A stretch of 64,000 bases of DNA from Methylococcaceae bacterium UBA6146 (GCA_002422395.1 DIUY01000030.1:221317-285316); one strand, 5' to 3'. Counted from the first letter of the stretch, positions 38,185-52,119 are shown. The notes: a model not told the origin generated them from the letters alone. Made by a program: numbers and translations.

Positions 38185-40782
38185 TTATCCACCAGTTGCC
38201 GCCGCTTCCGCCAACACGCAATCAACCCAAAAAATCGACCCCTCACCCAGTTTGCTCTGGACACCAATGCTGCCGCCCATCGCCTCGATCAGCTGCTTGC
38301 AGAGGGCAAGCCCCACGCCACTGCCTTCCACCCCGCTGTAAGCCGACTCCAAGCGCTCAAAATTTTTGAATAAATTTGGCAAGGCATGGGCGGGGATGCC
38401 TTTGCCCGTATCGCGGAATGCAATCCGCATCCTATCCTTGCCTTCCGGACGGCAACTGACCCAAATTTGCCCCGAATCACGGTTGTATTTAATGGCATTA
38501 GCCAATAGGTTCAAGATGGTTTGTCTAAGCCGCAAACGGTCTGCGTGCACGGTGCATGAACAATCAGCATAAAAATTAAGCGTAATTCCACGCTCCATGA
38601 TTAACGGCTGAAGTGAGCCGATACATTCCTCCAGTAATGGCCCGATAGCCAGCGCTTCCATAGCCAGCTCCAAGCGGCCAGTCTCAATCCGCGCCAAATC
38701 CAAAACTTCATTGATCAGTTCCAGCAAATGCCCGCCCGCCTTCAGTATTTCCCGAACACTGTCCAGTTGGTCGGGAACTAATGGGGCTAACGTATCGGTT
38801 TCTAACAGTTGCCCGAAGCCCAGAATGGCATTAAGCGGCGTGCGCAATTCATGGCTCATGCGTGACAGGAATTGTGATTTGGCGTGGCTGGCCCGTTGCG
38901 CCTCATCCCTGGCGTTGACCAATTCAGCAGTCCGCTCCGCCACCCGTTGCTCAAGTGCTTGGTTGAGGGAGATGAGTGCGGCTTTGGCGCGTTTGTGGCC
39001 GGTAAGGTCCGAGGCAACGAAAAGGAAGCCGATGACATTCCCCTGCCCGTCGTGTTTGGCGGTAACGGTCTGGCTGACCGGCAATAAGGAGCCATCCTTG
39101 CGGATATAAGTCCATTCACAAGGGGATAAATCACCCCGCAAGGACGGCTCAAAAAACACCGGCAACCCTTCAACCGCTTGCCCATAGCGCTTGCTTAGCA
39201 GCTCGCTGCGGGCGGCAATTTCTGTAGCCTGATGAAAAAACACCGGCGCCTGTTTATTGACAACTTCCAGCGCCTGATACCCCAACATCCGCTCGGCACC
39301 TTTGTTAAACAAGGAAATGACGCCATTAACATCAGTGGATATGATAGCCACCTCAGTGGCGGCATCAATAACAGCCTGCAATTCAATACGGGTTGCTAAA
39401 GTGGCCTCTACTTCAAGCTGGCTTTTAGTTATATCCTGCACCGTGCCCCATGAGCTTATAGGCTTGTCTTCGGCATCAAAGTCCGTATCGCCACATTCCT
39501 CAACCCATTTAATGCGGCCATCGGGCATCAGCAAGCGATGGATGATTTGGTAAGGTGTCTTGGAATGCAAAGAATTGGTGTAGACCTGATTGACTTTTTC
39601 CCTGTCATCAGGATGGATGATGTTGAGGAAAGCGTCATAAGTGGCTTCAAAATTTTCTTTGTCAAGCTCAAATAGCCGGAAAACTTCATCTGTCCAAATT
39701 AGCTGGCCGGTTTTTAAATCCAATTCCCAGCTCCCAACCTTAGCGATCCGTTGGGCTTCATTAAGACGCGCCTCGTTGAGGCGCAGGCGTTCTTCGGCTA
39801 CTTTTTGAGGGCGTAAATCCCGGGCCACCAGCCCAAAATTAATGGCTTCCCCAGTGTTAGGGTCATCAATGCGGAACAAGTCAATTGACACGGCAATCGT
39901 GCCACCATCAAGCAAATTACAAAACTGGTGTTCGCCAAGCCAACGGCCTGTGGCCAGCACTTCTGCGGCTATGTCAGCCAACAATGGCCAACGGCCACCG
40001 GCTAACAAACCACCTAACGGGATCTTAGAACAATCCCCGTCAACACTAACACCGAGCAACTGCCGCCCCGCTTGGTTAATGAATTGCACCTTACCGTCCA
40101 AACTAAAAAGCCCGATAAAGTCGGATGCAGAACGGACAACGGCGGTGTAACGCTCCATTTCACGCTCACGCAACCGCTGTTCGGTGACATCCTTGCCTAT
40201 CGAAATAACGCCGCTAAGTTGGCCATTAAAATCGTAAAGGGGTTGGTTCAGCCAGGCGATTTCCCGCTGCTCGCCATTGCGAGTGACAATCGGGTTTATA
40301 TGGCTGCTTTTTACTGTGGTGCAGCTTATTGAATTAAACAAAGCCCGAATGTGTTCTCTGTAAAATTCAGGCACAAAGGACGAAAACCAGTCCTTGCCCT
40401 TAATTTCTTCCAATTGGTAGCCGGTCAGTTGCTCAAAACAAGGATTGGCATAACTGATGTTGCCCTGCTCATCCAAGAGCAAAATGCTCACCGGTGCAGC
40501 ATTGAGCAAGTTGGCGGCAAAATCACGTTCACGTTTAAGCTCCAACGCCTGTTGATTGCGTTCGGCAACGCTTATGTCCAAAGCATTTAGGGCTCGCCAA
40601 GCAAACCAACTAGAACAGACGCCTACAAAACTTATGACGAAAAAGATATGTCCCACCAATTGCACGTTATCCCGCATTTGACATAGCCTATAACAATGCA
40701 GGGCCACCACGGCGGCTGCGGCGGCTGCGGCGAGCAATGCGGACAACATCATAACCGCCTTTAGCAATTTTTTTTTCATCAT
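38185..40782 (-). CDS. Membrane-anchored sensor histidine kinase with four PAS domains, no receiver
   Basis: Two N-terminal hydrophobic segments, four PAS/PAC repeats, SHELRTPLN H-box, NAIKYN, DTGKGI, GSGVGL, GSIF. Confidence 0.88.
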   Translation of the reverse strand: MMKKKLLKAVMMLSALLAAAAAAAVVALHCYRLCQMRDNVQLVGHIFFVISFVGVCSSWFAWRALNALDISVAERNQQALELKRERDFAANLLNAAPVSILLLDEQGNISYANPCFEQLTGYQLEEIKGKDWFSSFVPEFYREHIRALFNSISCTTVKSSHINPIVTRNGEQREIAWLNQPLYDFNGQLSGVISIGKDVTEQRLREREMERYTAVVRSASDFIGLFSLDGKVQFINQAGRQLLGVSVDGDCSKIPLGGLLAGGRWPLLADIAAEVLATGRWLGEHQFCNLLDGGTIAVSIDLFRIDDPNTGEAINFGLVARDLRPQKVAEERLRLNEARLNEAQRIAKVGSWELDLKTGQLIWTDEVFRLFELDKENFEATYDAFLNIIHPDDREKVNQVYTNSLHSKTPYQIIHRLLMPDGRIKWVEECGDTDFDAEDKPISSWGTVQDITKSQLEVEATLATRIELQAVIDAATEVAIISTDVNGVISLFNKGAERMLGYQALEVVNKQAPVFFHQATEIAARSELLSKRYGQAVEGLPVFFEPSLRGDLSPCEWTYIRKDGSLLPVSQTVTAKHDGQGNVIGFLFVASDLTGHKRAKAALISLNQALEQRVAERTAELVNARDEAQRASHAKSQFLSRMSHELRTPLNAILGFGQLLETDTLAPLVPDQLDSVREILKAGGHLLELINEVLDLARIETGRLELAMEALAIGPLLEECIGSLQPLIMERGITLNFYADCSCTVHADRLRLRQTILNLLANAIKYNRDSGQIWVSCRPEGKDRMRIAFRDTGKGIPAHALPNLFKNFERLESAYSGVEGSGVGLALCKQLIEAMGGSIGVQSKLGEGSIFWVDCVLAEAAATGG

Positions 40783-40804
40783 GGCCCCGCCTTATTGTTA
40801 TTTG

Positions 40805-40914
40805 GGTGGTAGGTTAAATCTGTGGCTGCACGTTGATAAGCGGGAGTACAAACCTGGGTTTGCCTCAGTACAAGCCAAGGCTTGTACTCCATCCACCCCA
40901 TTTAACCCACTACC
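40805..40914. mobile_element. MITE family B copy 1 (110 bp)
   Basis: GGTGGTAGGTTAAAT ... ATTTAACCCACTACC; internal GTACAAGCCAAGGCTTGTAC; near-identical inverted copy at 53435. Confidence 0.75.
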
Positions 40915-40972
40915 ATATTTTTGAATCAAAAAACTCCGCTGTCACTTAGGCATTTGAATGTTTACCACTACC
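40915..40972. mobile_element. MITE family A, truncated copy abutting family B copy 1
   Basis: TATTTTTGAATCAAAAAACTCCGCTGTCACTTAGGCATTTGAATGTTTACCACTACC matches the right part of 2035-2127. Confidence 0.68.
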
Positions 40973-40985
40973 AATAAATCTAAAG

Positions 40986-41094
40986 AATAGGGGGTTAAAT
41001 CTGTAATTTTAGTTCGTAATGTGGAGTGCAAACCTGGGTTTGCGCCTGTACAAGCCTAGGCTTGTACTCCAGCCAGCAGATTTAACCCGCTACC
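40986..41094. mobile_element. MITE family B copy 2
   Basis: ..TAGGGGGTTAAATC ... GATTTAACCCGCTACC; perfect 20-bp palindrome GTACAAGCCTAGGCTTGTAC; flanks ATCTAAAG / ATCTAAGG. Confidence 0.72.
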
Positions 41095-41160
41095 ATCTAA
41101 GGGTCAGGCCAAGAATAACTTCCAGCATTTAACATGATTACCATAGCGGCGGCTCATGAC

Positions 41161-42522
41161 TTAACACCGGCGGTTGCCCAACAAGGAATCAATAACTTTA
41201 AGAAACTTGGGTATGTCCAAGGGTTTGGTCAGGTACTCAACAAAACCAGCTTCGCGCCCTTTTCTCAGGTCACTTTCCATGGCGTTGGCCGATATGGCCA
41301 CAACGGGTATGTTTTGTGTTGACGGGTCGGCCTGCAATTGCCGGAATATTTCAAAACCATCCATATCCGGCAAGTTGATGTCCAACAAAATCAGGTCGGG
41401 GAGATGGCTTCTGGCTATTTCTAAACCCAATCTGCCCAAATGGGCGTCCAGCAACTTTAAGTCGCTATATTTGGCGATGATTTTCTGCACCAAACGGAGG
41501 TTGGCTGGGTTGTCTTCCAGGTACAGCACAGTGTGGCAAGCGGAAGTTGAGCGGGGAAGAGCTTTATTTTCGGGATTTTCCTGCGGTTCCCGTTGCGTAT
41601 TGTCGGCTTTAGGAAAACTGACCCAAAATAAGGAACCTTCACCGAGGCTACTTTCCACGCCAATTTCCCCAGCCATTGCTTCGGTCAGTTTTTTACTGAT
41701 GGCAAGCCCTATGCCGGAGCCTTCAATGCCATCATAAGGCGAACCTAAGCGCTCAAAAGGCTGGAACAAATGGGGCAGTTTATGGGCGGGAATACCATCG
41801 CCCATATCCTGCACATTAATTTGGACTTTTTCATCGTAATGTTGGCAGCCAATTCTGATAATGCCTGCCTGACGGTTGTATTTAATGGCATTGGATAATA
41901 GGTTCAACAAGATCTGCCGCATCCTGAAGCGATCCACCAAAATCGAGCAATCCCCATCTAAACCCAATTCGACTTGAATTTGCCGGCTATGGATTAACGG
42001 TTGCAGCAAGGCCACGGTTTCTTTGACTAACTCCCATACCTTGACCGGTTCTAGGATAAATTGAAATTGCCCGCTTTCAATGTGCGCCAAATCCAGCACC
42101 TCATTAATCAGTTTTAGCAAATGTTTGCCGGCAATCACGATTTCGTTGACACTTTCAAGTTGGTCGGCAGCTAACGGATGCTTGGCGTCGGCCTCCAATA
42201 ATTGTCCAAAGCCGATAATCGCATTCATTGGGGTGCGCAGCTCATGGCTCATCCTCGACAAGAATCGGGATTTTGCTTCATTGGCACGCTCGGCTTCTTC
42301 CTTGGCCAATACCAGTGAAGATTCATGCCGCTTGCGCCCCGCGATGTCGTGGACGAATGAATAAAAAAACAACTCCCCACCTATTTGGTTAATCGTCACC
42401 TTCACCTCAACGTCAATCACCACGCTATCTTTACGCCGATAACGGGTGTCAAAACGCAGATGACCGTTTTCTTGTAATGATATTTTGGAGTCAAAAAACA
42501 TGTTTTGTGGCTCAGCTATCAT
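41161..42522 (-). CDS. Hybrid histidine kinase (half-PAS, HisKA, HATPase, REC); N-terminus derived from a MITE
   Basis: SHELRTPMN, NAIKYN, GSGIGL, REC YLEDN/LLDINLP/LTKP; only the PAC half of a PAS remains. Confidence 0.85.
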   Translation of the reverse strand: MIAEPQNMFFDSKISLQENGHLRFDTRYRRKDSVVIDVEVKVTINQIGGELFFYSFVHDIAGRKRHESSLVLAKEEAERANEAKSRFLSRMSHELRTPMNAIIGFGQLLEADAKHPLAADQLESVNEIVIAGKHLLKLINEVLDLAHIESGQFQFILEPVKVWELVKETVALLQPLIHSRQIQVELGLDGDCSILVDRFRMRQILLNLLSNAIKYNRQAGIIRIGCQHYDEKVQINVQDMGDGIPAHKLPHLFQPFERLGSPYDGIEGSGIGLAISKKLTEAMAGEIGVESSLGEGSLFWVSFPKADNTQREPQENPENKALPRSTSACHTVLYLEDNPANLRLVQKIIAKYSDLKLLDAHLGRLGLEIARSHLPDLILLDINLPDMDGFEIFRQLQADPSTQNIPVVAISANAMESDLRKGREAGFVEYLTKPLDIPKFLKVIDSLLGNRRC

Positions 42523-42549
42523 TTAAACATTTAAATGTTTACCGCTGCC
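42475..42549. mobile_element. MITE family A, diverged truncated copy overlapping the kinase start
   Basis: TAATGATATTTTGGAGTCAAAAAACATGTTTTGTGGCTCAGCTATCATTTAAACATTTAAATGTTTACCGCTGCC aligns with 2052-2127. Confidence 0.7.
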
Positions 42550-42557
42550 CGCGTTGT

Positions 42558-45500
42558 TTATTCAGGGTCAATTTTTAAATACACATCCAACAGTGCGAAA
42601 AAAGCCCGGGCGTCGATAGGTTTTTCCAAGTAACCGACAAATCCAGCTTCCCTTGCACGGGCATGGTCGAGAATACCCGCGATTGCTGATAACGCAATCA
42701 CGGGAGGGATGTTCGACAAGCCACTCTTTCGCAGTTGTTTAAGAAAAGCGAAACCATCCATTTGTGGCATATTGATGTCCACTAAAACCAGCTCGAACGG
42801 CATGGTTGACAGCAAGTCCAAACCAACTCGTGTGGAGTGTGCCGTCATCAGGTGAATATCCGGCAGATGCCTGAGCAATTCGACCATATGTTTGAAATTG
42901 CCAATATTTTCATCGATATATAAGATAGTTGTGTAGTTGTCGGCTATCCGTGCTATGCGTGATTTGGTGCGCGAGCGCCGTTCCTGCGGCAATTCCAGCC
43001 AAAAGGTGCTGCCGACACCCTTTAGGCTATCGACACCAATAGCCCCGCCCATCAACTCGACAAGCTGCCGGGTAATGGCCAAACCGATGCCGGTGCCCTG
43101 TATGTTCAGGCCTTCAGCGCCTAGCCGGTTAAACGGCCTGAACAGCTCGCCGAGCCGCTCTTTCGGTATCCCCACTCCGGTGTCACTGACTTGGATGCGT
43201 ATCAGCCCGGAACTAACCAAGCGGCAACCTAACTCCACCTTACCGCCCGGTCTGTTGTATTTAATGGCGTTGGACAGCAAGTTAAGCAAACACTGTTTCA
43301 GGCGCAATGAATCCGCCCTTAGCAATATCGAAGAACAATCAGCAGAGACCATTATTTGTATGCCCCTAGCTTCAGCCATTGGCTTGACGAGTGCCAAACA
43401 AGCGTCGATGACCTCACTTAAAACGACCGCTTCTATGGATAATTCGATATTGCCGCCCTCGATTTTTGCCAAGTCTAAAACTTCATCAATCAACTGCATC
43501 AAATGGCGGCCAGCCTTAAGAATTTCGCCCGCGCCCTCCCTATGTTCGTTTAGCAGCCTGACATCCATTTCCATTAACTGGGCAAACCCCAGCACCGCAT
43601 TCATAGGGGTGCGCAATTCATGCGACATGCTGGAAAGGAACTTTGATTTCGCCAGATTGGCGCGTTCGGCTTCGTTCTTGGCGGCCAGCAATTGGGCTTC
43701 ATGCCGCTTACGGCTGGAAATGTCACGCACCAGGCCGATAAACAACGTTGCGTTGTCCAACTGAATCTCGGAAATCGCCAAATCCATCGGAAACACGCCA
43801 CCATCCTTACGGCGGCCCGTCACTTCACGGCCTATGCCGATAATACGTTTGACGCCTGACTCAACATATCTTTTCAGGTAAGCGTCATGTTCACTGGCAT
43901 AAGGCTCCGGCATCAACATCTTGACATTGTTGCCGACAATCTCATGGGGGGCATAGCCAAAAATCCGTTGGGCGGCGGGGTTGAACGATGACACGCCCCC
44001 CCGGCTGTCGATAGTGATGACCCCATCGACCACATTGTCCAAGATGGCTTGGGTATGCTTGGCGCTTTCCTTAGGGGCGCGTTCGGTGTTCTTACGGTAA
44101 CTGATGTCACTGACATAGCCATGCCAAAGGATAGAACCCTCTTCCTCCTGCTCTGGAGCGGCGTTGGCCAATAACCAGCGCACCGAACCATCGGCAAACC
44201 TGACCCGAAACTCATGCTCCCAGGTGGTCAAGCCACGCGCGGAAGCTTTGATGGAAAGCAATATCCCACGGCGGTCAAGCGGATGAAAAATAGGCATCAA
44301 TTTGGCCACATTTTCACGGGCTTCTTCAGCGCTTAGCCGGAACAATCCGGCAATCGCATCGCTGGCGTAGGGTAAGCAAAAATTTCCGGCGGTGGTCAAG
44401 CGTAATTGGAACACCACGCCGGGCACCCGGCTGGCGATTTTTTGCAGGCGCTCCAATACCTCTTGGCGACTGGCCTCGGCTTCTTTTTGGCGGGTCACAT
44501 CCTCGGTGAGGCCGATAAAATGGCTAAGCTTGCCCAGGCTATCATGCACAGGGGCAACCCGCATTTTGTTCCAAAACAAGCCGCCATCTTTGCGGTAATT
44601 GCGCAGCAAAGCTTCCCCCGCCCTGCCCTCGCGCAAGGCGGCGCGGATTTCCGCAAGTTCGGGTTGGTCAGTGTCGTTAGCCAATAAAAAACGGGCATTG
44701 TGGCCAAGCGCCTCTTGGCGGCTATACCCAGTGATGCGCTCAAAAGCGGGATTGACATAAACCAACGGCAATTTAGGGTCAGTGGCGTCAGCAATGCTGA
44801 TGCTGCCAGAACTGGCTTCGACGGCCCGGCTAAGGATATTGAGGCGGATTTCATGTTCTTTTATCTTAGTGATGTCAGTACGGATGGAAATGTACTGGTA
44901 GGGTATGCCCTGATTGTCCAAAAAGGGCACAATACTGGATTTTACCCAATACAAACTACCATTTTTCCGGCGGTTGCAGATTTCGCCCTGCCAAATTTTG
45001 CCACGGCTGATCGTCAGCCAGATGCCAGTGAAAAAACCTTGCGAATGTTCATCCGATTTCAGGATGCGATGGTTCTGGCCAAGCAGTTCGCTACGGCTAT
45101 AGCCACTGACCTCACAAAATTTTTCATTGACATAAACGATTCTGCCTTCCTTGTCGGTGATACTGACTATGGCATGATAATTGACTGCCTGATACTGTCG
45201 CCTGCATTCATAAAGCATCAGCCGGTGGTCTTCGGCTCTCTTAGTGGTTTGCCGAAAATGCCAGGCATAGTTTGCCAGTTTGGTGAGCAAGGTCTGTGGC
45301 TTAACCGTTTTTGCAAAAAAATGGTCACGCCCGTAGTCCGATACCGGCAACGTCCAGCCTATCCCCCACTCTTCCAACAAATATACGATAGGCAGTTGCC
45401 GGCACATTTCATCTTCACGCAAGATAGCCGCCAACTCAGTCCCGGAACAGGCTTCCATGTTCATGGACAACATCAGCAAGTCAACGGGGGAACGTGACAA

Positions 45501-46391
45501 AATCGCCGCTGTTTGGAACGGTTCATCAAGCGCTTCGACTTTCCACCCGGCCTGCTCCAATAGTGCGGCTCGCGCCGCCAATTGCCGCTGATTGTCGTCG
45601 ACCAACAAGATCCGATAAGGCGGGTCAGGGAACGGGGAGGCGACATCAGCGAGCTTATCCAGTATCTCGTCCGCCTCCAGGGGGTAAGCCAGACAACTGG
45701 CGGCACCGAACCGGTAAGCGGCCAGCTTGGCCGCCATATCGGCACTCTCCAGCAAAGACACCAAAGGCAAGCCCTGTAGGCACAAGCTTTTTAGTTCCAA
45801 GGCCGTGGCTTCGGTAAGGTGGCCGTTTTGCAAACAGGCCATGTCCATCAGCACTGCCGCTGGCCGCTCCTGCCCCAAACAAGCCTCCTTGACCGCTTTG
45901 TCCTCGTCTAACAAGTCAACGACAAAACCGGCCTGAACCAAGGCGGGAACAATCAGGGCAACCAGTTGCCGATTCTTTTTTGCAACCAACCACAATTTGC
46001 GCCCTTGGCCTATCGGGGAAAACAGTGTCCATTCGGTGCTTAATTTATCCACCTGCACCCGCAACTTTTTTAACACCTGGTGTAAAGGGAACAGGTCAAG
46101 GTCATGGGCATTTTGGTTGCCCTGCGGACAGCTGGCTTCAAACACCTGCTTCAACTCATGGACAAGCAGGCTTATAGCTGGCAAATGGTGTATATCTGCC
46201 ACCTCAATCAACTGGTTGATCATAATGCGCAACGACTCTATTGCCTTCGGGCCACCGTCGGCGAGTTCTTCAATATGGGTTTCCAACAACACTAACCGGC
46301 ACGGCATGCTTCTGACAAAATTATCCCGTAACCGGTGCAGGGCCGTTTGGAAATCGTGTTCAATAATCGGTTCTTTCAGTAATGAAGCCAT
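42558..46391 (-). CDS. Multi-sensor hybrid histidine kinase: Hpt-like, 2 degenerate REC, FAD-type PAS, LOV-like PAS, PAS_3, heme-type PAS, HisKA, HATPase, REC
   Basis: GQNHRILKS..W..ISRG..WQGEICNRRKNG; GHNARFL..NYRKDG..FWN; LMPEPY..EHDAYL..IIGIGREV..RKDG..FP; SHELRTPMN; LVDINMP. Confidence 0.88.
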   Translation of the reverse strand: MASLLKEPIIEHDFQTALHRLRDNFVRSMPCRLVLLETHIEELADGGPKAIESLRIMINQLIEVADIHHLPAISLLVHELKQVFEASCPQGNQNAHDLDLFPLHQVLKKLRVQVDKLSTEWTLFSPIGQGRKLWLVAKKNRQLVALIVPALVQAGFVVDLLDEDKAVKEACLGQERPAAVLMDMACLQNGHLTEATALELKSLCLQGLPLVSLLESADMAAKLAAYRFGAASCLAYPLEADEILDKLADVASPFPDPPYRILLVDDNQRQLAARAALLEQAGWKVEALDEPFQTAAILSRSPVDLLMLSMNMEACSGTELAAILREDEMCRQLPIVYLLEEWGIGWTLPVSDYGRDHFFAKTVKPQTLLTKLANYAWHFRQTTKRAEDHRLMLYECRRQYQAVNYHAIVSITDKEGRIVYVNEKFCEVSGYSRSELLGQNHRILKSDEHSQGFFTGIWLTISRGKIWQGEICNRRKNGSLYWVKSSIVPFLDNQGIPYQYISIRTDITKIKEHEIRLNILSRAVEASSGSISIADATDPKLPLVYVNPAFERITGYSRQEALGHNARFLLANDTDQPELAEIRAALREGRAGEALLRNYRKDGGLFWNKMRVAPVHDSLGKLSHFIGLTEDVTRQKEAEASRQEVLERLQKIASRVPGVVFQLRLTTAGNFCLPYASDAIAGLFRLSAEEARENVAKLMPIFHPLDRRGILLSIKASARGLTTWEHEFRVRFADGSVRWLLANAAPEQEEEGSILWHGYVSDISYRKNTERAPKESAKHTQAILDNVVDGVITIDSRGGVSSFNPAAQRIFGYAPHEIVGNNVKMLMPEPYASEHDAYLKRYVESGVKRIIGIGREVTGRRKDGGVFPMDLAISEIQLDNATLFIGLVRDISSRKRHEAQLLAAKNEAERANLAKSKFLSSMSHELRTPMNAVLGFAQLMEMDVRLLNEHREGAGEILKAGRHLMQLIDEVLDLAKIEGGNIELSIEAVVLSEVIDACLALVKPMAEARGIQIMVSADCSSILLRADSLRLKQCLLNLLSNAIKYNRPGGKVELGCRLVSSGLIRIQVSDTGVGIPKERLGELFRPFNRLGAEGLNIQGTGIGLAITRQLVELMGGAIGVDSLKGVGSTFWLELPQERRSRTKSRIARIADNYTTILYIDENIGNFKHMVELLRHLPDIHLMTAHSTRVGLDLLSTMPFELVLVDINMPQMDGFAFLKQLRKSGLSNIPPVIALSAIAGILDHARAREAGFVGYLEKPIDARAFFALLDVYLKIDPE

Positions 46392-46506
46392 TTTCTTGTA
46401 ATCGTTATTTGCTAATAAATGTCTGGAACAACCAATTTTGGCAGGCTTTATTGGTGCGGTATCACTATTCCTGATTAGTAAGATACTTCAGCTAAAGCTC
46501 AGAATA

Positions 46507-46621
46507 CGTCGTTCCGGCAGGGAGAGCGTAGCGAGGGTTGGCCGGAACCCAAAAGCCATGGAAGGCTTACAATAATTACATCCATGTAATCTGGATACCG
46601 GCAGTCCATGCCGGTATGACG
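46507..46621. repeat. REP/MITE-like element with CGTCATTCCGGC-type ends
   Basis: CGTCGTTCCGGCAGGG ... GCCGGAACCC ... GGATACCGGCAGTCCATGCCGGTATGACG; same motif family at 53666. Confidence 0.62.
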
Positions 46622-46652
46622 TTGTTGCTGAAGCACCTTTATAATCAGGTCA

Positions 46653-49600
46653 CTATTTGGCTGAATCAGCCTGCAACCAAGCAATAAGCTCATCAACAGG
46701 CATGGCTTTGGCTATCAGCCAGCCCTGCACAAAATCACAGCCTACGCCCCTGACCAAATCCAAGTCTTCTTGGGTCTCCACCCCTTCCGCGACGGTGACA
46801 AGGTTAAGTTTGGCCGCCATCCCGACGCTGGCAGAAAGTATCGTGCGAGCCGTGGCATTATCAGCGGCGCCTTTGACAAAGGCGCGGTCCAGTTTAAGTT
46901 CGTTAAATGGAATACGCTGCAATTGCTCTAGCGATGAATAGCCGGTACCAAAATCATCAATTGATAACTTGAAGCCCTTAAGCCGCAAACGGGTCATAAT
47001 ATCCAAGGTTTTGGTCAGGTCGTCCATAACCCCTGTTTCAGTAACCTCAAGGATCACGTTGCCAACTTTTAGCCCGGTTGTCTCGGTGCTGGCTTGGATA
47101 AAATCCGGCAGGTTCACATCCGACATCCAAGCCGCCGACAAATTAACGGAAATATCCAACGGAAAGCCCGCATCAACAAGACGGCGGCCACCGATAAACG
47201 CTTTGACCAATAAAACTTCCGACAATGCCCCCACCAAACCGCAGTGTTCTGCCGCCAAAATAAAGGCTTCAGCCGGCACAGCGGCCCCTTGCCGCCGCCA
47301 ACGCGCCAAGGCCTCAACCCCAACTGGTTTGAGGGTAAAGGCATCGACCTTCGGTTGGAAGAAAACATCAAATTCATCATTGTTTAAGCCATCCAAAATA
47401 TCTTCAGTCTTGATCGCCTTTGCCGTGGCTTTTTTGACGGTATTGACCTGTCTGTGGGAAGCGTCATTCAATAAAGCCAAGAAATCATCGCGGACTAACG
47501 GTTTGCCCAAACTACCCACCAAATGCAAACCTTGCAAGCAGGCTAATTCAACTGCGGACTGCATCAACCGCGCATCAACCCCGCTCACCAAAATGATATT
47601 GCCTTGGTAGCCTATCTCGCTCATACGCCGCAAAAACTCAATGCCATCCATCTCCGGCATATTCAAATCACAAAGCAGCAAATTGACGCGCTGCCCGTGT
47701 GCTTCCAGCTCTTTTAAGCCTGCCATGCCACTGTCGGCCACCAGCACCTCAGTTACCCCTAACGCGGTCAGCAACAAGGATGTTTGCCGTCGGACCACCG
47801 CATCATCGTCAACCACCAACACGCAATTGGGCAATTCTAAACAGGGCTTAGTGTTTTGTAAGGCGGGCAGGCTATTTTTAACAATGGCTTCTTCAACATC
47901 AGTGAGCGCGTGTTCAAGCTCCCGAAGCAAGGCCGCCGCATGGCCGACTGCCCCTTGCTTGGCAACAATTTCCAACTCTTTGGCCAATTCGGCAAAACGC
48001 AACGCCCCTATGGCCTGTGAGGAAGACTTCAGCTTGTGCATGGACAAAGCAAGCCCCGCCATGTCTTGGGCCAAAAGATCCCGACGGCATAAAACCAACT
48101 CGGCTTGGGCGGAACTGGTGAACAAGTCAACCAAGCTTTGGATTTGTCGGGCATCCAAACCACCCGTTATCTTAAGTAAATAATCGGTGTCCAAAACATG
48201 CTTGCCGTAAGGGGACTGTGCTAGCTTGCTTGGGAAGACCGATAATGGGGGCTTTGATGCCGCCACTGCCTGTTCGGGCAACCATTGCTGTAGCTTTTGC
48301 CGCAGGTAATTCAAATCAATAGGTTTGGGCAAGGTGTCGTCCATACCGGCGTTCAAGCAAGCCTCGAGTTCCTCCGGGTAAGTGAATGCGGTAATGGCGA
48401 TCATAGGCATGTGGGCCTCTGTGCCTTGTTCTGCTGCACGGATTGAGCGGGCAAGTTGCATCCCATCCATACGGGGCATACTGATGTCGCTTAAGATAAG
48501 GTCGTAGCCGCCTTTTTTCCATTCGACCAAGGCTTCCGAGCCGTCTGCAACAATAACGGCATCAATGCCCAACACACCCAGCTGCATTTTGAGTAAGGTT
48601 TGGTTGGTGGGGTTATCTTCGGCGACTAAGATGCGGTACGCTTGTTTTTGTTGTTCTGACTCGCCATCAGTTGGGGCGATCAATGCGGCGGAATCTTTAA
48701 TTTCCAGAGGATTTTCTTCGTGCGCCCTAGCCAGCTTGTCAATCAATTGGTTAAACCGGTCGCTGGATTTGATGATTTCTTGGGCGCATTCAAGAACATC
48801 GGCAGCCAGGTTTGTTTGCATCGACAGAAGCTGCGCCTCGCCTAAGAAGCCATTTAACGAGGTACGCAGTTCATAGCTGACACTGGCGACAAGTTCGCTC
48901 TGCCTAGCCCGGTTCTTTTCGGCTTTTTCCAAAAATTCGGCAAGGTCGTCAACCGCTTGTTGTTGGCGATCATTTTTCCCGGCGGTTTCAATCAAATTGG
49001 CGCAAGTTTCGGTAAAAGGCGCCAAAAACTCCACGGATCCGGCGTCATAGCCATCCTGCTTATTGGCCAAACCCAGCATCCCTAGCAGGCAGTCCCCAGA
49101 ATAAATCGGCATTCCCATAAACGCGGTCAGCGGCGGATGCCCTGTTGGCAAACCACGGCTACGGGGATCATTTTGCGGGTCATTGCTGATCAGCGGGCGG
49201 CCCGCAAGGATGACAGCGCCATACAGGCTGTCCAGAGATTTAAACCCTGCTCCGGTCGCCTGCATTTTCTGATACATGGCGCGGCTGGTTTCATCCCAGC
49301 TTATGTCGGTGACTGCCTTGATGCTAAGGTAAGGGTGGCCAATGGGCTCATACAACACCTCTGCGACAAACCCAAACGCACTTTCAGTCAGCAGCAACAC
49401 GCCGTCCAACAAACGGTTAACCGCGTTGCCCAAGTTACGGTCAACATTGAATTGTTGCAGGGTCTCCCGCAATAAATTCAATAACCGCTGTTGCCGCCGC
49501 TCTTCGGCATGCAGCTGTTTTTGCTGTGTCACATCGGTACGGACAGAAAAATACTGTTTTGGCTTTCCGTGCCCATCCATAATCGGCGCAATAGTGGATT

Positions 49601-50978
49601 GCACCCAATAAGGCTTGCCGTCTTTGCTGCGGTTTTGGATTTCACCTTGCCAAGTCTTGCCGGCGCTAATGGTCTTCCACATCTCAACAAAAAATGCGTG
49701 CGGATGGTGGCCGGATTTGACAATGCGGTGATTATGGCCAATCAATTCTTCTTTACTATAACCGCTTATGTCACAAAACTTTTGGTTGACATCAATAATG
49801 GTGCCATGGGCTGAAGCAATGGAAACAATCGAATGTGCATCCAAGGTGCTGCGCAACCATTTTTGCTGCGCTTGGACGGCTTGCCATCCCTTCGCCCTGC
49901 CCTGCAACAACCGATGTTGACGGGATTTTGCTATGACTAGGGACAATAATTCATAACCTTGCACGGGTTCCGACAAATAACAGCTTCCAGTGGCCAAATA
50001 ATGGCGTCTGATTTCATCGGGGCAATCAGGGCCTAGCCAATAAATCACCGGCAGTTGCACACTGTCCATTTTCAATCGGCATAACGCCAAAAAACCAGGG
50101 CTTTGGCACAACGCCAGTGAAGCGTCCAGTATCAGCGCATCGGGGGGGAAAGTTGCCAGAAGATGGGGCATCTGCAACGGTTCAGACTGAGTTACAACCT
50201 CAATACCGGCGTCATGCAAGACACTCAGGCCAAGCGCCAGCTTTTGGCGGTCAGCACTGAGCAAGAGCACACGATAAGGTGCTTGCGGCATCCAAGCAAC
50301 GCCTGCCAATTCCGACAGCAGCTTTGAAGCATCAACGGGGGGTTCAAAAAATAGGCGGACACCCAGCCCGCTGACAAAAACTGGGTCATGGCTGCCCAGA
50401 CTATCCAGCATACCGACCAGTATCGGCATCACCTCTTGCCCTGTGCTTTGCTTGAGCTGCCCTAAAAGCCATTGCCCATGTTGGGTGAGCCAGCTTGATC
50501 CCGCCACTAGCACGAGCTGTTCTTGGCAAAGGTAGCCCTCAGAAAAATCGCCATCGGATTTGTGTTCAACTATAAACCCCAAGCTTTGAAGGGTTCGGCT
50601 GAGCCGGATTGTCTCCGCAGACTGGTCACCAAGGAGGCAGAAAACCCAAGCCCCCGGTTGGGGGGGCAAGTTTTTGGCATCGACTTGCCCTGACAACGGC
50701 CCTTCACGCAATAGGGCTGCCAGATTATGTGCGGACTGCAAGGCCGAGGCCAACCGTTCGGGCGCGGGCGCGTCTTGGAAGAAATCAGCCAAGACCGAAA
50801 CCAACGCCTTGGCCCGGCTCGAAACCTCAAACCAATCCGTACCCTCAGACTTGTCAATAACATTTGCCAAGGACTTAGCCAAATGGGTGGCTATCACTCT
50901 ATCCCAACCGGCATTTTTAAGCCGGCCAGTGTGCTTGCTTATGTCTGCTGCAAGTTGTTCTAAAGCCGCAGTATTCAT
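46653..50978 (-). CDS. c-di-GMP phosphodiesterase with degenerate kinase core: REC-like x2, FAD-type PAS, GAF, pseudo-HisKA, REC, Hpt, REC, EAL
   Basis: SYELRTSLN (His->Tyr), no HATPase; HKLKSSS Hpt; two intact REC (LSDISMP, LCDLNMP); EAL motifs VEALARW, SVNLS, LEVTE, DDFGTGYSS, LKLD, AEGVE, VQG. Confidence 0.88.
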   Translation of the reverse strand: MNTAALEQLAADISKHTGRLKNAGWDRVIATHLAKSLANVIDKSEGTDWFEVSSRAKALVSVLADFFQDAPAPERLASALQSAHNLAALLREGPLSGQVDAKNLPPQPGAWVFCLLGDQSAETIRLSRTLQSLGFIVEHKSDGDFSEGYLCQEQLVLVAGSSWLTQHGQWLLGQLKQSTGQEVMPILVGMLDSLGSHDPVFVSGLGVRLFFEPPVDASKLLSELAGVAWMPQAPYRVLLLSADRQKLALGLSVLHDAGIEVVTQSEPLQMPHLLATFPPDALILDASLALCQSPGFLALCRLKMDSVQLPVIYWLGPDCPDEIRRHYLATGSCYLSEPVQGYELLSLVIAKSRQHRLLQGRAKGWQAVQAQQKWLRSTLDAHSIVSIASAHGTIIDVNQKFCDISGYSKEELIGHNHRIVKSGHHPHAFFVEMWKTISAGKTWQGEIQNRSKDGKPYWVQSTIAPIMDGHGKPKQYFSVRTDVTQQKQLHAEERRQQRLLNLLRETLQQFNVDRNLGNAVNRLLDGVLLLTESAFGFVAEVLYEPIGHPYLSIKAVTDISWDETSRAMYQKMQATGAGFKSLDSLYGAVILAGRPLISNDPQNDPRSRGLPTGHPPLTAFMGMPIYSGDCLLGMLGLANKQDGYDAGSVEFLAPFTETCANLIETAGKNDRQQQAVDDLAEFLEKAEKNRARQSELVASVSYELRTSLNGFLGEAQLLSMQTNLAADVLECAQEIIKSSDRFNQLIDKLARAHEENPLEIKDSAALIAPTDGESEQQKQAYRILVAEDNPTNQTLLKMQLGVLGIDAVIVADGSEALVEWKKGGYDLILSDISMPRMDGMQLARSIRAAEQGTEAHMPMIAITAFTYPEELEACLNAGMDDTLPKPIDLNYLRQKLQQWLPEQAVAASKPPLSVFPSKLAQSPYGKHVLDTDYLLKITGGLDARQIQSLVDLFTSSAQAELVLCRRDLLAQDMAGLALSMHKLKSSSQAIGALRFAELAKELEIVAKQGAVGHAAALLRELEHALTDVEEAIVKNSLPALQNTKPCLELPNCVLVVDDDAVVRRQTSLLLTALGVTEVLVADSGMAGLKELEAHGQRVNLLLCDLNMPEMDGIEFLRRMSEIGYQGNIILVSGVDARLMQSAVELACLQGLHLVGSLGKPLVRDDFLALLNDASHRQVNTVKKATAKAIKTEDILDGLNNDEFDVFFQPKVDAFTLKPVGVEALARWRRQGAAVPAEAFILAAEHCGLVGALSEVLLVKAFIGGRRLVDAGFPLDISVNLSAAWMSDVNLPDFIQASTETTGLKVGNVILEVTETGVMDDLTKTLDIMTRLRLKGFKLSIDDFGTGYSSLEQLQRIPFNELKLDRAFVKGAADNATARTILSASVGMAAKLNLVTVAEGVETQEDLDLVRGVGCDFVQGWLIAKAMPVDELIAWLQADSAK

Positions 50979-51502
50979 GTTTTAAGATACCGTGTGTTGA
51001 TGACATGAAGCTTGTTTTCAATAAGTGCCCGCAAGATTCTAAATGGAACTGGTTTAGAATAAACGGGGATGCCCCGCAATAACTTGCGGGCATCCTCCAT
51101 TTCTGTTGCATCCAAAGCGGCCACAACGATAATATCGAAACGGTTATTGTCTTCCTGGCCACGCAAATGCCGGATCAGCCATACACTGTCCATTTCTGGC
51201 ATGTGCAAGTCGGTAATGACTAAATCAAGGGCATGGCGGCCAATTTTTATCAGTCCATCAAAGCCTCGGTTGCCGTCAATAACTACAAAGGCGTTGAGGG
51301 GGATTGCCTGCAATACTGATTTTTGCCCGGGAACTAGGGATTCCACAGCGTTCCTAGGGATGCGCCAATGGCCGGCCGCCCGCAGTCTTCCACGCCGGCA
51401 ATTTGCCATTTTCAACCCACAACTGTACGGTTGACAATGCTCCCCAAGGGTGGCCGCCACCTTGCGCGTAGAAATAAATTCAGATGCTTGCTTCGCCTTC
51501 AA
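50975..51502 (-). pseudogene. Degenerate excisionase-type HTH + receiver regulator
   Basis: Canonical LSTVQLWVENGKLPAWKTAGG hidden in another frame between two compensating frameshifts; the first beta-alpha unit of REC is missing. Confidence 0.65.
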
Positions 51503-51642
51503 TTAGATAATCAACATAGGCTAAGTTACTGGGTTTGGCATTATATTCCCAGTTTATAAGCAAAAATAGCGCTTTCAACATTTCCAACATATTCATGATT
51601 TTTGGCGGGACACAATGATTTACACCACTTATTGGCAAGCGT

Positions 51643-52119
51643 ATGACTGACCGCGTCGACCCTGAAACCCGTTCGCGCACGATGGCTGCTATCCGCAGCA
51701 AAAATACGAAACCGGAGAAATGGGTCCGTTCCGCCCTACACAAGCAAGGCTTCCGGTTTCGCCTGCACAATAAAAAATTGCCCGGATCGCCGGATTTGGT
51801 GTTACGTAAGCACCATGCGGTAATATTCATTAACGGCTGTTTTTGGCATCAGCATGAAGGCTGCAAGGCGGCGCATCTGCCAAAAACACGGCAAGCGTTT
51901 TGGGGGCTGAAATTTGCCCGCAATGTGGCGCGTGACCAGAAAGTGCTGTACCAACTTAAAGTGTTGGGTTGGCGGGCGGCGATTGTTTGGGAATGCGGTC
52001 TGAAGAAAAAATGCAGGGATACAACTTTGCAACATTTGGTGGCATGGCTGCACAGCGGCGCAGAGTATTTTGAAATGCCCGTTTATGACGAATTTAGCGA
52101 CTTAAGTGATTATGAATAA
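51643..52119 (+). CDS. vsr: Very short patch repair endonuclease
   Basis: RSRTMAAIRSKNTKPE, LPGSPDLV, GCFWHQHEGC, FWGLKFARNVARD, GWRAAIVWEC. Confidence 0.93.
   Translation: MTDRVDPETRSRTMAAIRSKNTKPEKWVRSALHKQGFRFRLHNKKLPGSPDLVLRKHHAVIFINGCFWHQHEGCKAAHLPKTRQAFWGLKFARNVARDQKVLYQLKVLGWRAAIVWECGLKKKCRDTTLQHLVAWLHSGAEYFEMPVYDEFSDLSDYE

Follow-up and report, generated by a model that had tools for sequence, protein, structure and literature searches.

A soluble hybrid histidine kinase of a methanotroph with FAD-type, LOV-like and FixL-type heme PAS domains

Which signals would a soluble kinase read if it carries PAS domains of three cofactor types? The question is raised by an open reading frame (ORF) at positions 42558-46391 of a 64,000-nucleotide stretch of DNA from Methylococcaceae bacterium UBA6146 (GCA_002422395.1, DIUY01000030.1:221317-285316), referred to here as the window, whose minus strand encodes a hybrid histidine kinase of 1277 amino acids. 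Methanotrophs of the Gammaproteobacteria, Methylobacter among them, inhabit oxic-anoxic interfaces, where methane oxidation has to be adjusted to a meager supply of oxygen (O2); to our knowledge, little has been established about the means by which they sense O2 and redox state. An earlier reading of the sequence, called here the original prediction, had assigned the kinase one PAS domain each for flavin adenine dinucleotide (FAD), a LOV-like flavin site and heme, and had proposed simultaneous sensing of O2, cellular redox state and perhaps light. The sequence and structure comparisons described below make it fairly probable that the protein would be gated by O2 at a heme, modulated by flavin redox state and engaged in feeding the turnover of cyclic di-GMP (c-di-GMP). 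The domains on which this reading depends are, in N- to C-terminal order after the ORF itself:

42558-46391, minus strand: whole ORF, soluble hybrid histidine kinase of 1277 residues, reading frame uninterrupted
46029-46370, minus strand: residues 8-121, degenerate HPt-like helical bundle (four helices in the AlphaFold2 model; phospho-His position occupied by Asn59)
45636-46004, minus strand: residues 130-252, pseudo-receiver 1, REC1 ((beta-alpha)5 fold in the AlphaFold2 model; Asp183 kept)
45252-45620, minus strand: residues 258-380, pseudo-receiver 2, REC2 (second Pfam Response_reg stretch, AlphaFold2 model and Foldseek; Ser309)
44856-45182, minus strand: residues 404-512, PAS1, FAD PAS of the MmoS/Aer type (3ewk match and pocket residues)
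44490-44810, minus strand: residues 528-634, PAS2, LOV-like flavin domain (phmmer, AlphaFold2 and Foldseek; photochemistry residues gone)
44097-44429, minus strand: residues 655-765, PAS3, FixL PAS-A-like, no cofactor signature
43713-44048, minus strand: residues 782-893, PAS4, FixL-type heme PAS (1d06 match and heme-pocket residues)
43452-43652, minus strand: residues 914-980, DHp/HisKA (Pfam HisKA, 1.3e-17; phospho-His924)
42981-43313, minus strand: residues 1027-1137, catalytic ATP-binding (CA) domain (Pfam HATPase_c, 8.7e-27)
42594-42926, minus strand: residues 1156-1266, C-terminal receiver (Pfam Response_reg, 1.8e-32; Asp1205 and Lys1257)

Heme and flavin pockets of the PAS domains

Each PAS domain was searched separately against the PDB sequences with phmmer, and the domain matches obtained for PAS1, PAS2 and PAS4 are far beyond chance. 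Residue conservation was counted over 62 members of the protein family (P0011-P0118 alignment), and a tree of the same 62 members was built with FastTree.

PAS4 matches the heme domain of S. meliloti FixL (1d06; E=1e-34, 48% identity) and B. japonicum FixL (BjFixL, 1dp6; E=5e-31, 44% identity), with the heme PAS of DosP/EcDOS far behind (E~1e-18). The original prediction had named a FixL proximal histidine (HDxY) and a distal arginine (GIGR) in this domain, and both are in place: His835 (codon 43887-43889) aligns with BjFixL H200, and Arg855 lies in the IIGIGR FG-loop; the hydrophobic triad I850/L871/I873 is kept as well. The corresponding pocket positions are Y838=Y203, R841=R206, I850/I851=I215/I216, R855=R220, L871=L236 and I873=I238, on a BjFixL numbering that is anchored on H200 and has a self-consistent offset at every anchor. 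PAS3, the fourth PAS domain of the kinase (residues ~655-765), finds only a weak PDB match on its own (3mr0); the PAS3-PAS4 pair is collinear with PAS-A/PAS-B of BjFixL (8js5 residues 65-269, E=1.6e-36) and resembles the widespread FixL-like hybrid kinases of ~770-1000 residues. The helical linker from PAS4 to the DHp domain is gap-free from D890 to H924, with both positions invariant in a 28-sequence alignment (A1), and this continuous helix would make PAS4 the kinase-proximal switch, as in FixL. The NCBIfam FixL model (sens_FixL_Rhizob) places its positions 26-481 on residues 681-1136 but reaches only 245 of the 850 bits that its cut-off requires, so that the kinase is not a FixL orthologue; none of the NCBIfam equivalog cut-offs is reached.

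The best PDB match of PAS1 is PAS-A of MmoS (3ewk; E=3e-55, 60% identity over 110 ungapped residues), followed by Aer (8dik, 40% identity) and then NifL (2gj3). Its pocket residues were mapped from two sources: the flavin-pocket network of MmoS, consisting of T103, G107, H132, N164 and R195 (PMC9668731, on the structure of Aer), and the determinants of FAD binding in PAS domains, an F-alpha Trp together with His and Asn (PMC10468136, on PAS evolution). The pocket is complete, with T412, G416, H441, W458, N473 and R504 at the FAD-pocket positions, and its G, H, W, N and R are each present in 62/62 family members. The likeness to NifL/Aer and to MmoS PAS-A that had been proposed for this domain is thereby borne out. 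The FAD of MmoS has a potential of ~-290 mV (PMC9668731), which suits the reporting of cellular reducing power. Alignment to the PAS domains of FixL, NifL and MmoS, suggested earlier as a check of the assignments, was run and sends PAS4 to FixL and PAS1 to MmoS, then to Aer and NifL.

PAS2 matches PpSB1/PpSB2, PF5-LOV, the PAL receptor and the LOV domains of phototropins with E-values from 1e-33 to 1e-25, the match to PpSB2-LOV (7a6p) having E~1e-33 and 46% identity. The AlphaFold model of residues 516-650 (predicted local distance difference test, pLDDT, 89) superposes on 7a6p in Foldseek with a template modeling (TM) score of 0.95 and a root-mean-square deviation of 1.3 A, the A'alpha and Jalpha helices included. 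The ten LOV signature residues of Yee et al. are G59, N61, C62, R63, F64, L65, Q66, N94, N104 and Q123 of YtvA (PMC4682037), and 7/10 are kept at the equivalent positions of PAS2: G563, N565, A566, R567, F568, L569, L570, N598, N608 and T629. Where the canonical motif is NCRFLQ (GxNCRFLQ) the domain reads NARFLL (GHNARFLL), and it has FIGLTED for FIGxQxD; the adduct Cys is replaced by Ala566 (codon 44694-44696), the YtvA-Q66 equivalent by Leu570 and the active-site Gln (YtvA Q123) by Thr629. The flavin contacts N565, R567, R583, N598 and N608 (YtvA N61, R63, R79, N94 and N104) are retained, each in 62/62 family members. As modeled, PAS2 is a LOV fold without LOV photochemistry, and light sensing by the canonical route is unlikely because the Cys, the YtvA-Q66 equivalent and the active-site Gln are all replaced; with Ala566, Leu570 and Thr629, and only 7/10 signature residues, the tentative suggestion of a light input is weakened.

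The photochemical positions also vary within the family. The adduct site is Cys in 43, Ala in 15 and Pro in 4 of the 62 members and has switched state at least 10 times on the family tree; the I-beta active-site Gln occurs in 0/62, with Ser in 46; and the YtvA-Q66 site is Gln in 38, His in 14 and Asn in 8, with Leu in the window copy only. We read these counts as a sign that flavin binding by PAS1 and PAS2 is strongly constrained and that the photochemical residues of PAS2 are not. Given invariant flavin contacts and labile photochemical residues, the LOV module of the family would be primarily a flavin (redox) module, which in some members may respond to light too. The LOV domains of the family also form a natural series for the study of Cys-less and Gln-less LOV signaling.

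Pfam recognizes at least three PAS units, HisKA, HATPase_c and the C-terminal receiver in the kinase, with a weaker N-terminal receiver signal. The elements of a hybrid histidine kinase are all found, namely the H-box His (H924, kept in 62/62 family members), the N, G1, F and G2 boxes (NLLSNAIKYN, DTGVGI, FRPF and GTGIGL, all intact) and the receiver Asp and Lys (D1205 and K1257, each in 61/62). The single strongly hydrophobic 19-residue stretch covers residues 143-161, which lie within helix alpha1 and strand beta2 of REC1 in the AlphaFold2 model. Since this stretch is inside the receiver fold, the kinase is soluble, in agreement with the original prediction, and transmembrane anchoring was rejected. 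The PAS peptides quoted in that prediction occur where it had placed them, IVSITDKEG of PAS1 starting at residue 408 (nucleotide ~45170) and NVKMLMPEPY of PAS4 at residue 822 (nucleotide ~43928). Its claim of three cofactor-type PAS domains in one kinase stands by domain homology, with the qualification that the LOV-like PAS lacks the adduct Cys and both signature Gln residues. It had overlooked the N-terminal HPt-like/REC/REC module, the degeneration of that module and the collinearity of PAS3-PAS4-kinase with full-length FixL.

The methanotroph family and the degenerate N-terminal module

The multi-sensor arrangement is not a one-off, for it belongs to a family that is conserved in some methanotroph genera and in which the window copy is a highly divergent member. 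A search with the PAS region across 5.8 billion proteins returned ~60 clusters of ~1275-residue proteins that align with the query over its full length, with identities of 44-52%. The layout of the family is HPt-REC-REC-PAS(FAD)-LOV-PAS-PAS(heme)-kinase-REC. Among the members with a name are those of Methylobacter, 'Methylococcaceae' and Methylomarinum vadi, and the members from Methylotuvimicrobium alcaliphilum, M. buryatense and strain KM1 are 1418 residues long with one extra PAS. When a strict regular expression was applied to 219 retrieved homologues, a set biased by the query and hardly informative on other phyla, proteins with all three motifs were found in the methanotroph family only.

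The host genome (3.19 Mb, 99.99% complete) contains pmoCAB (contig C20, locus L088 1456-2016), which identifies the host as a methanotroph; the pmoA frame includes a stretch of masked bases, X in translation, that is apparently no lesion. The sequencing runs listed are all of DNA and come from metagenomes of hydrocarbon and groundwater and from one other sample. The full-length protein is present in 13/201 genomes of the host's family, distributed over 4/36 genera. Among ~21 species of the host's own genus it occurs in the window genome only, and the congeners have only ~800-residue PAS, heme-PAS, kinase, REC proteins that match residues 680-1274. Recent horizontal acquisition was considered and rejected, because the best identity to any other protein is ~46-52%. 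Identities to the Methylobacter-type proteins are 66% for PAS1, 64% for LOV, 50% for PAS4, 68% for DHp and 58% for CA, the same level as that of the orthologues from Methylomarinum and Methylotuvimicrobium. The diverged outliers of the window copy are the C-terminal receiver (39% vs 58%) and PAS3, whose identity to the family PAS3 is 25%, vs 56-61% among the other genera; PAS3 has probably been replaced or has strongly diverged in this copy.

The heme His is found in 51/62 family members and the distal Arg in 3/62, the window copy included. By these counts and those for PAS2, we would regard the window copy as having the most FixL-like heme pocket and the least photoreceptor-like LOV domain of the family. 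In the orthologues of the model methanotrophs Methylotuvimicrobium alcaliphilum and M. buryatense the proximal His is changed to Ile or Tyr (P0062, P0063, P0064, P0066, P0076, P0046). The Methylomarinum vadi orthologue P0048 retains the LOV Cys as well as the heme His, and P0014 and P0021 have Ala at the adduct site. A further orthologue, in a genome of the same taxonomic family (G193, C18:33196-37008), has one in-frame TAA stop.

The PAS repertoire of the host is unusually rich for 3.2 Mb, with more than 12 MmoS/Aer-like PAS domains. At least three more FixL-like heme-PAS proteins, 27-40% identical to PAS4, are encoded in frames of 629-675 residues on contigs C11 (173677-174030), C7 (120838-121194) and C3 (122298-122666).

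The N-terminal third of the kinase has lost several of the residues expected of a relay. In the AlphaFold model of residues 1-395 (pLDDT 81), a four-helix bundle (residues 8-121) precedes two (beta-alpha)5 receiver folds. Pfam Hpt gives no match to the window copy at E<=0.01, whereas the orthologues do score Hpt there. The family HPt motif, LHRAAHSLVGSAG, reads LRIMINQLIEVAD in the window copy, with the His replaced by Asn59; the phospho-His motif HxLxGSAG is INQLIEVAD, and the bundle is predicted without the phospho-accepting His. The HPt His is present in 55/62 family members. REC1 has KK for the acidic pair DD of the family and AYP for TKP, and in REC2 the phospho-acceptor Asp, found in 58/62 members, is Ser309. 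Foldseek relates the tandem receivers to 3mf4/3luf and PleD (E 5e-9) and to ShkA (6qrj, E 3e-6).

Gene neighborhood and a candidate phosphorelay

The minus-strand genes around the kinase are, in order, a receiver-like ORF, a 1441-residue protein, the window kinase itself, a kinase-REC protein and a membrane kinase with multiple PAS domains:

50975-51502, minus strand: receiver-like ORF, 175 residues
46653-50978, minus strand: upstream neighbor, 1441 residues, partial paralogue with a REC-Hpt-REC-EAL C-terminal part
41161-42522, minus strand: downstream kinase-REC, 453 residues, truncated PAS
38185-40782, minus strand: membrane multi-PAS kinase

The 1441-residue neighbor has a paralogous N-terminus, in which the HPt-like/REC/REC module is also degenerate, and its MmoS-type PAS shares 55% identity with PAS1. 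These are followed by a GAF domain and a DHp domain whose H-box, SYELRTS, has no His; there is no ATPase domain, and the C-terminal part, REC-Hpt(HKLKSSS)-REC-EAL, is intact. The kinase and this neighbor look like the complementary degeneration of two paralogues. The 453-residue kinase-REC, 43% identical to residues 858-1271 of the kinase, is without the N-terminal half of its PAS domain and has the appearance of a truncated paralogue.

Synteny was read from the contigs that encode the orthologues. These adjoin REC-HD-GYP proteins, an Hpt-REC-GGDEF protein and further PAS hybrid kinases. The recurrence of c-di-GMP enzymes beside the kinase suggests a phosphorelay that would run from His924 to Asp1205, to the Hpt of the neighbor, to its last receiver and so to EAL, and such a trans route is in line with the missing HPt His of the window copy itself. 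A promoter and terminator scan of 40500-52000 found sites no more frequent than in shuffled sequence.

Direct support for reading the protein as an O2-gated, flavin-modulated kinase comes from the homology and folds of its domains, its pocket residues, their conservation in the family and the gene neighborhood; from these we infer that the cofactors are bound, in which direction they regulate, that their signals are integrated and which protein receives the phosphoryl group. The kinase would be cytoplasmic and probably dimeric, and would integrate oxygen with the cellular redox state. PAS4 would act as the switch nearest the kinase, on one continuous helix to His924. O2 binding inhibits the FixL kinase (PMC8534201); by analogy, the kinase would autophosphorylate while its heme is deoxy-ferrous and would be silenced once the heme binds O2, the ligand being held by a hydrogen bond to Arg855. 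The FAD of PAS1 would report the redox poise of the cell and modulate the kinase through helical linkers: the PAS domains end in DIT/DVT/DIS motifs, and PAS1 and PAS2 lie upstream along one spine with PAS4, each with a DIT-like motif followed by a helix. PAS2 very probably still holds a flavin that forms no Cys adduct, and it may serve as a second redox module or as a transmitter, not as a blue-light receptor. The phosphoryl group would pass from His924 to Asp1205 and then to the HPt of another protein, as it must if the kinase has lost its own HPt-like His and both of its N-terminal receivers are degenerate. The likeliest recipient is the upstream neighbor at 46653-50978; with its dead H-box, its lack of an ATPase domain and its intact REC-Hpt-REC-EAL, the output would be c-di-GMP hydrolysis. 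With an FAD-type PAS1 and a FixL-type PAS4 in one soluble kinase, the joint sensing of O2 and redox state that had been proposed survives as the most economical reading by homology and residues, its cofactor binding being the predicted part.

Alternative readings and comparison with known systems

Several observations weigh against the O2-gated, flavin-modulated kinase. The branch of the window copy measures 1.13 substitutions/site vs a median of 0.1, and the degenerate N-terminal modules, together with the absence of the protein from ~20 congeneric species, would fit a relaxation of selection on some regions of the kinase. Cofactor binding is deduced from sequence and predicted folds; Leu570 is unique among the 62 members, and with this YtvA-Q66-equivalent flavin contact lost the flavin affinity of PAS2 may be lowered. 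Among the neighbors of the kinase in the window there is no gene for a FixJ-type regulator. Judged by its residues, FixL-like O2 sensing is not common to all members of the family, given that the distal Arg is absent in 59/62 members and the heme His in 11/62.

The window copy no longer has the His of its HPt-like domain, the acidic pair of REC1, the phospho-acceptor Asp of REC2, or the Cys and the flavin-contact Gln of its LOV domain; these losses and its long branch would fit a single-input, FixL-like O2 sensor in which the C-terminal half works and the N-terminal half is either a scaffold for dimerization or decaying. The PAS3-PAS4-kinase-REC part alone also matches FixL-like hybrid kinases of ~770 residues and the ~800-residue proteins of the congeners. 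However, PAS1 and PAS2 are the best-conserved sensors, their 66% and 64% identity to orthologues being the same as between other genera, the FAD pocket is complete, and all five LOV flavin contacts are present and unchanged across the family, a combination that argues for purifying selection on flavin binding and makes a single input rather unlikely. Similar evidence tells more strongly against a non-functional remnant drifting to loss. Absence from the congeners, the long branch and the loss of several relay residues would all be expected of such a gene, but 1277 uninterrupted codons, intact kinase boxes, H924, D1205, K1257, two intact cofactor pockets and per-domain identities equal to those of orthologues in other genera leave it with very little credence.

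Two further alternatives concern the signals themselves, and both are quite improbable. The heme PAS might respond to nitric oxide, carbon monoxide or the redox state of the heme iron, as discussed for DosP; PAS4 does match the DosP/EcDOS heme PAS, and the distal Arg, the source of O2 selectivity in FixL, is absent from most orthologues, yet the window copy has the full FixL set, Arg855 and the IIGIGR FG-loop included, and matches FixL (E=1e-34) far better than DosP (E=1e-18). PAS2 might instead supply a light input through photoreduction of its Cys-less flavin to the neutral semiquinone, giving a three-input kinase for redox, light and O2. Photoreduction does allow signaling in the Cys-less forms of Vivid, YF1 and BAT-LOV, and LOV domains with Ala or Pro at this site occur in nature (PMC4682037), LOV receptors with Ser or Thr in place of the Gln can be true photoreceptors (PMC9098866), and the Cys is retained in 43/62 orthologues. 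Set against this, the Cys, the YtvA-Q66 equivalent and the active-site Gln are jointly gone in the window copy, whose 7/10 signature residues fail the filters of >=9/10 (PMC4682037) and >=8/9 (PMC9098866); the Cys site has changed at least 10 times and so is without firm constraint; and the source is a hydrocarbon metagenome, with related sequence in groundwater. A more ambitious reading, which we hold only tentatively and judge unlikely, is that the family is a natural multi-input logic device, with FAD redox, LOV flavin and heme O2 sensors along a single coiled coil, whose LOV domain repeatedly toggles between Cys (photoactive) and Ala or Pro (redox-only) with its flavin contacts unchanged, the window copy being at the extreme redox-only end and paired with a kinase-dead HPt-EAL paralogue by complementary degeneration. 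If it were true, the family would be a test bed for the origin of LOV photoreceptors from redox flavoproteins and for the addition of signals by tandem PAS domains.

The O2-gated, flavin-modulated kinase, as the preferred reading, bears on O2 sensing in methanotrophs and on signal integration by tandem PAS domains. The family joins FixL-type heme and MmoS/Aer-type FAD sensors in one kinase, and with c-di-GMP enzymes adjoining it is a concrete candidate for a methanotroph O2/redox switch. That the LOV Cys is labile and the flavin contacts are invariant is relevant to the question of whether LOV domains that lack the Cys sense redox state. Within the literature consulted, which is incomplete, we found neither a description of a natural kinase in which PAS domains of the MmoS/Aer FAD type, the LOV type and the FixL heme type occur together nor work on the methanotroph family, and nothing to the point on LOV in Methylobacter, Methylomicrobium, Methylotuvimicrobium or Methylomarinum or on FixL in methanotrophs. 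As the single domains are of known kinds and multi-PAS hybrid kinases are common, the surprise is moderate and no new principle is involved.

Several known systems share parts of this architecture. MmoS of Methylococcus capsulatus Bath is the FAD-PAS redox sensor of the copper switch of soluble methane monooxygenase (sMMO) and has the layout PAS-PAS-GAF-kinase-REC-HPt. PAS1 shares with it 60% identity and the same Thr/Gly/His/Trp/Asn/Arg pocket; the layout differs from that of the window kinase, which does not show the combination of this layout with an adjacent sMMO operon that marks an MmoS orthologue. A search of the 99.99%-complete host genome for Phenol_Hydrox, the sMMO hydroxylase, gave no match, and control genomes likewise gave none. 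The upstream neighbor, with its PAS-GAF-deadDHp-REC-Hpt-REC-EAL layout, is more MmoS-like than the window kinase. With FixL, the window kinase shares collinearity over residues ~650-1140 with soluble BjFixL (PAS-A, heme PAS-B, DHp and CA) and a heme PAS set directly on the DHp helix; it differs in its C-terminal receiver, its lack of an adjoining FixJ and ~650 extra N-terminal residues that hold two flavin-type PAS domains and the degenerate HPt-REC-REC.

ShkA has a pseudo-receiver of the same fold, and its kinase core is also a top sequence match of the window kinase; the likeness to ShkA and PleD is limited to fold and domain logic. The pseudo-receiver of ShkA is a ligand-gated lock (PMC8534201). 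With c-di-GMP as the ligand that gates this lock, c-di-GMP feedback on the window kinase through its tandem pseudo-receivers (residues 130-394; 45210-46004) is conceivable by analogy. Of the short LOV proteins and LOV kinases (PpSB1/PpSB2-LOV, YtvA, Brucella LOV-HK), PpSB2-LOV is the one that PAS2 was compared with in predicted fold and flanking helices, which agree; the five LOV flavin contacts (N, R, R, N and N) are kept. The natural Cys-less LOV* (BAT) and Gln-less LOVdeltaQ proteins each lack one key residue, whereas the PAS2 of the window kinase lacks all three (PMC4682037, PMC9098866).

The methanotroph family is, finally, a natural analogue of the engineered LOV and heme kinase YHF, itself derived from YF1. 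In both, a single kinase is controlled along one coiled coil by a LOV-type PAS and, downstream of it, a FixL heme PAS, and in YHF this arrangement integrates light and O2 cooperatively (PMC6798134), a precedent for the signal integration proposed here. The window copy differs from YHF in lacking the photoactive Cys, and the family differs in being natural and in three added features: an FAD PAS, a PAS-A-like domain that intervenes between the LOV and heme domains, and a hybrid relay.

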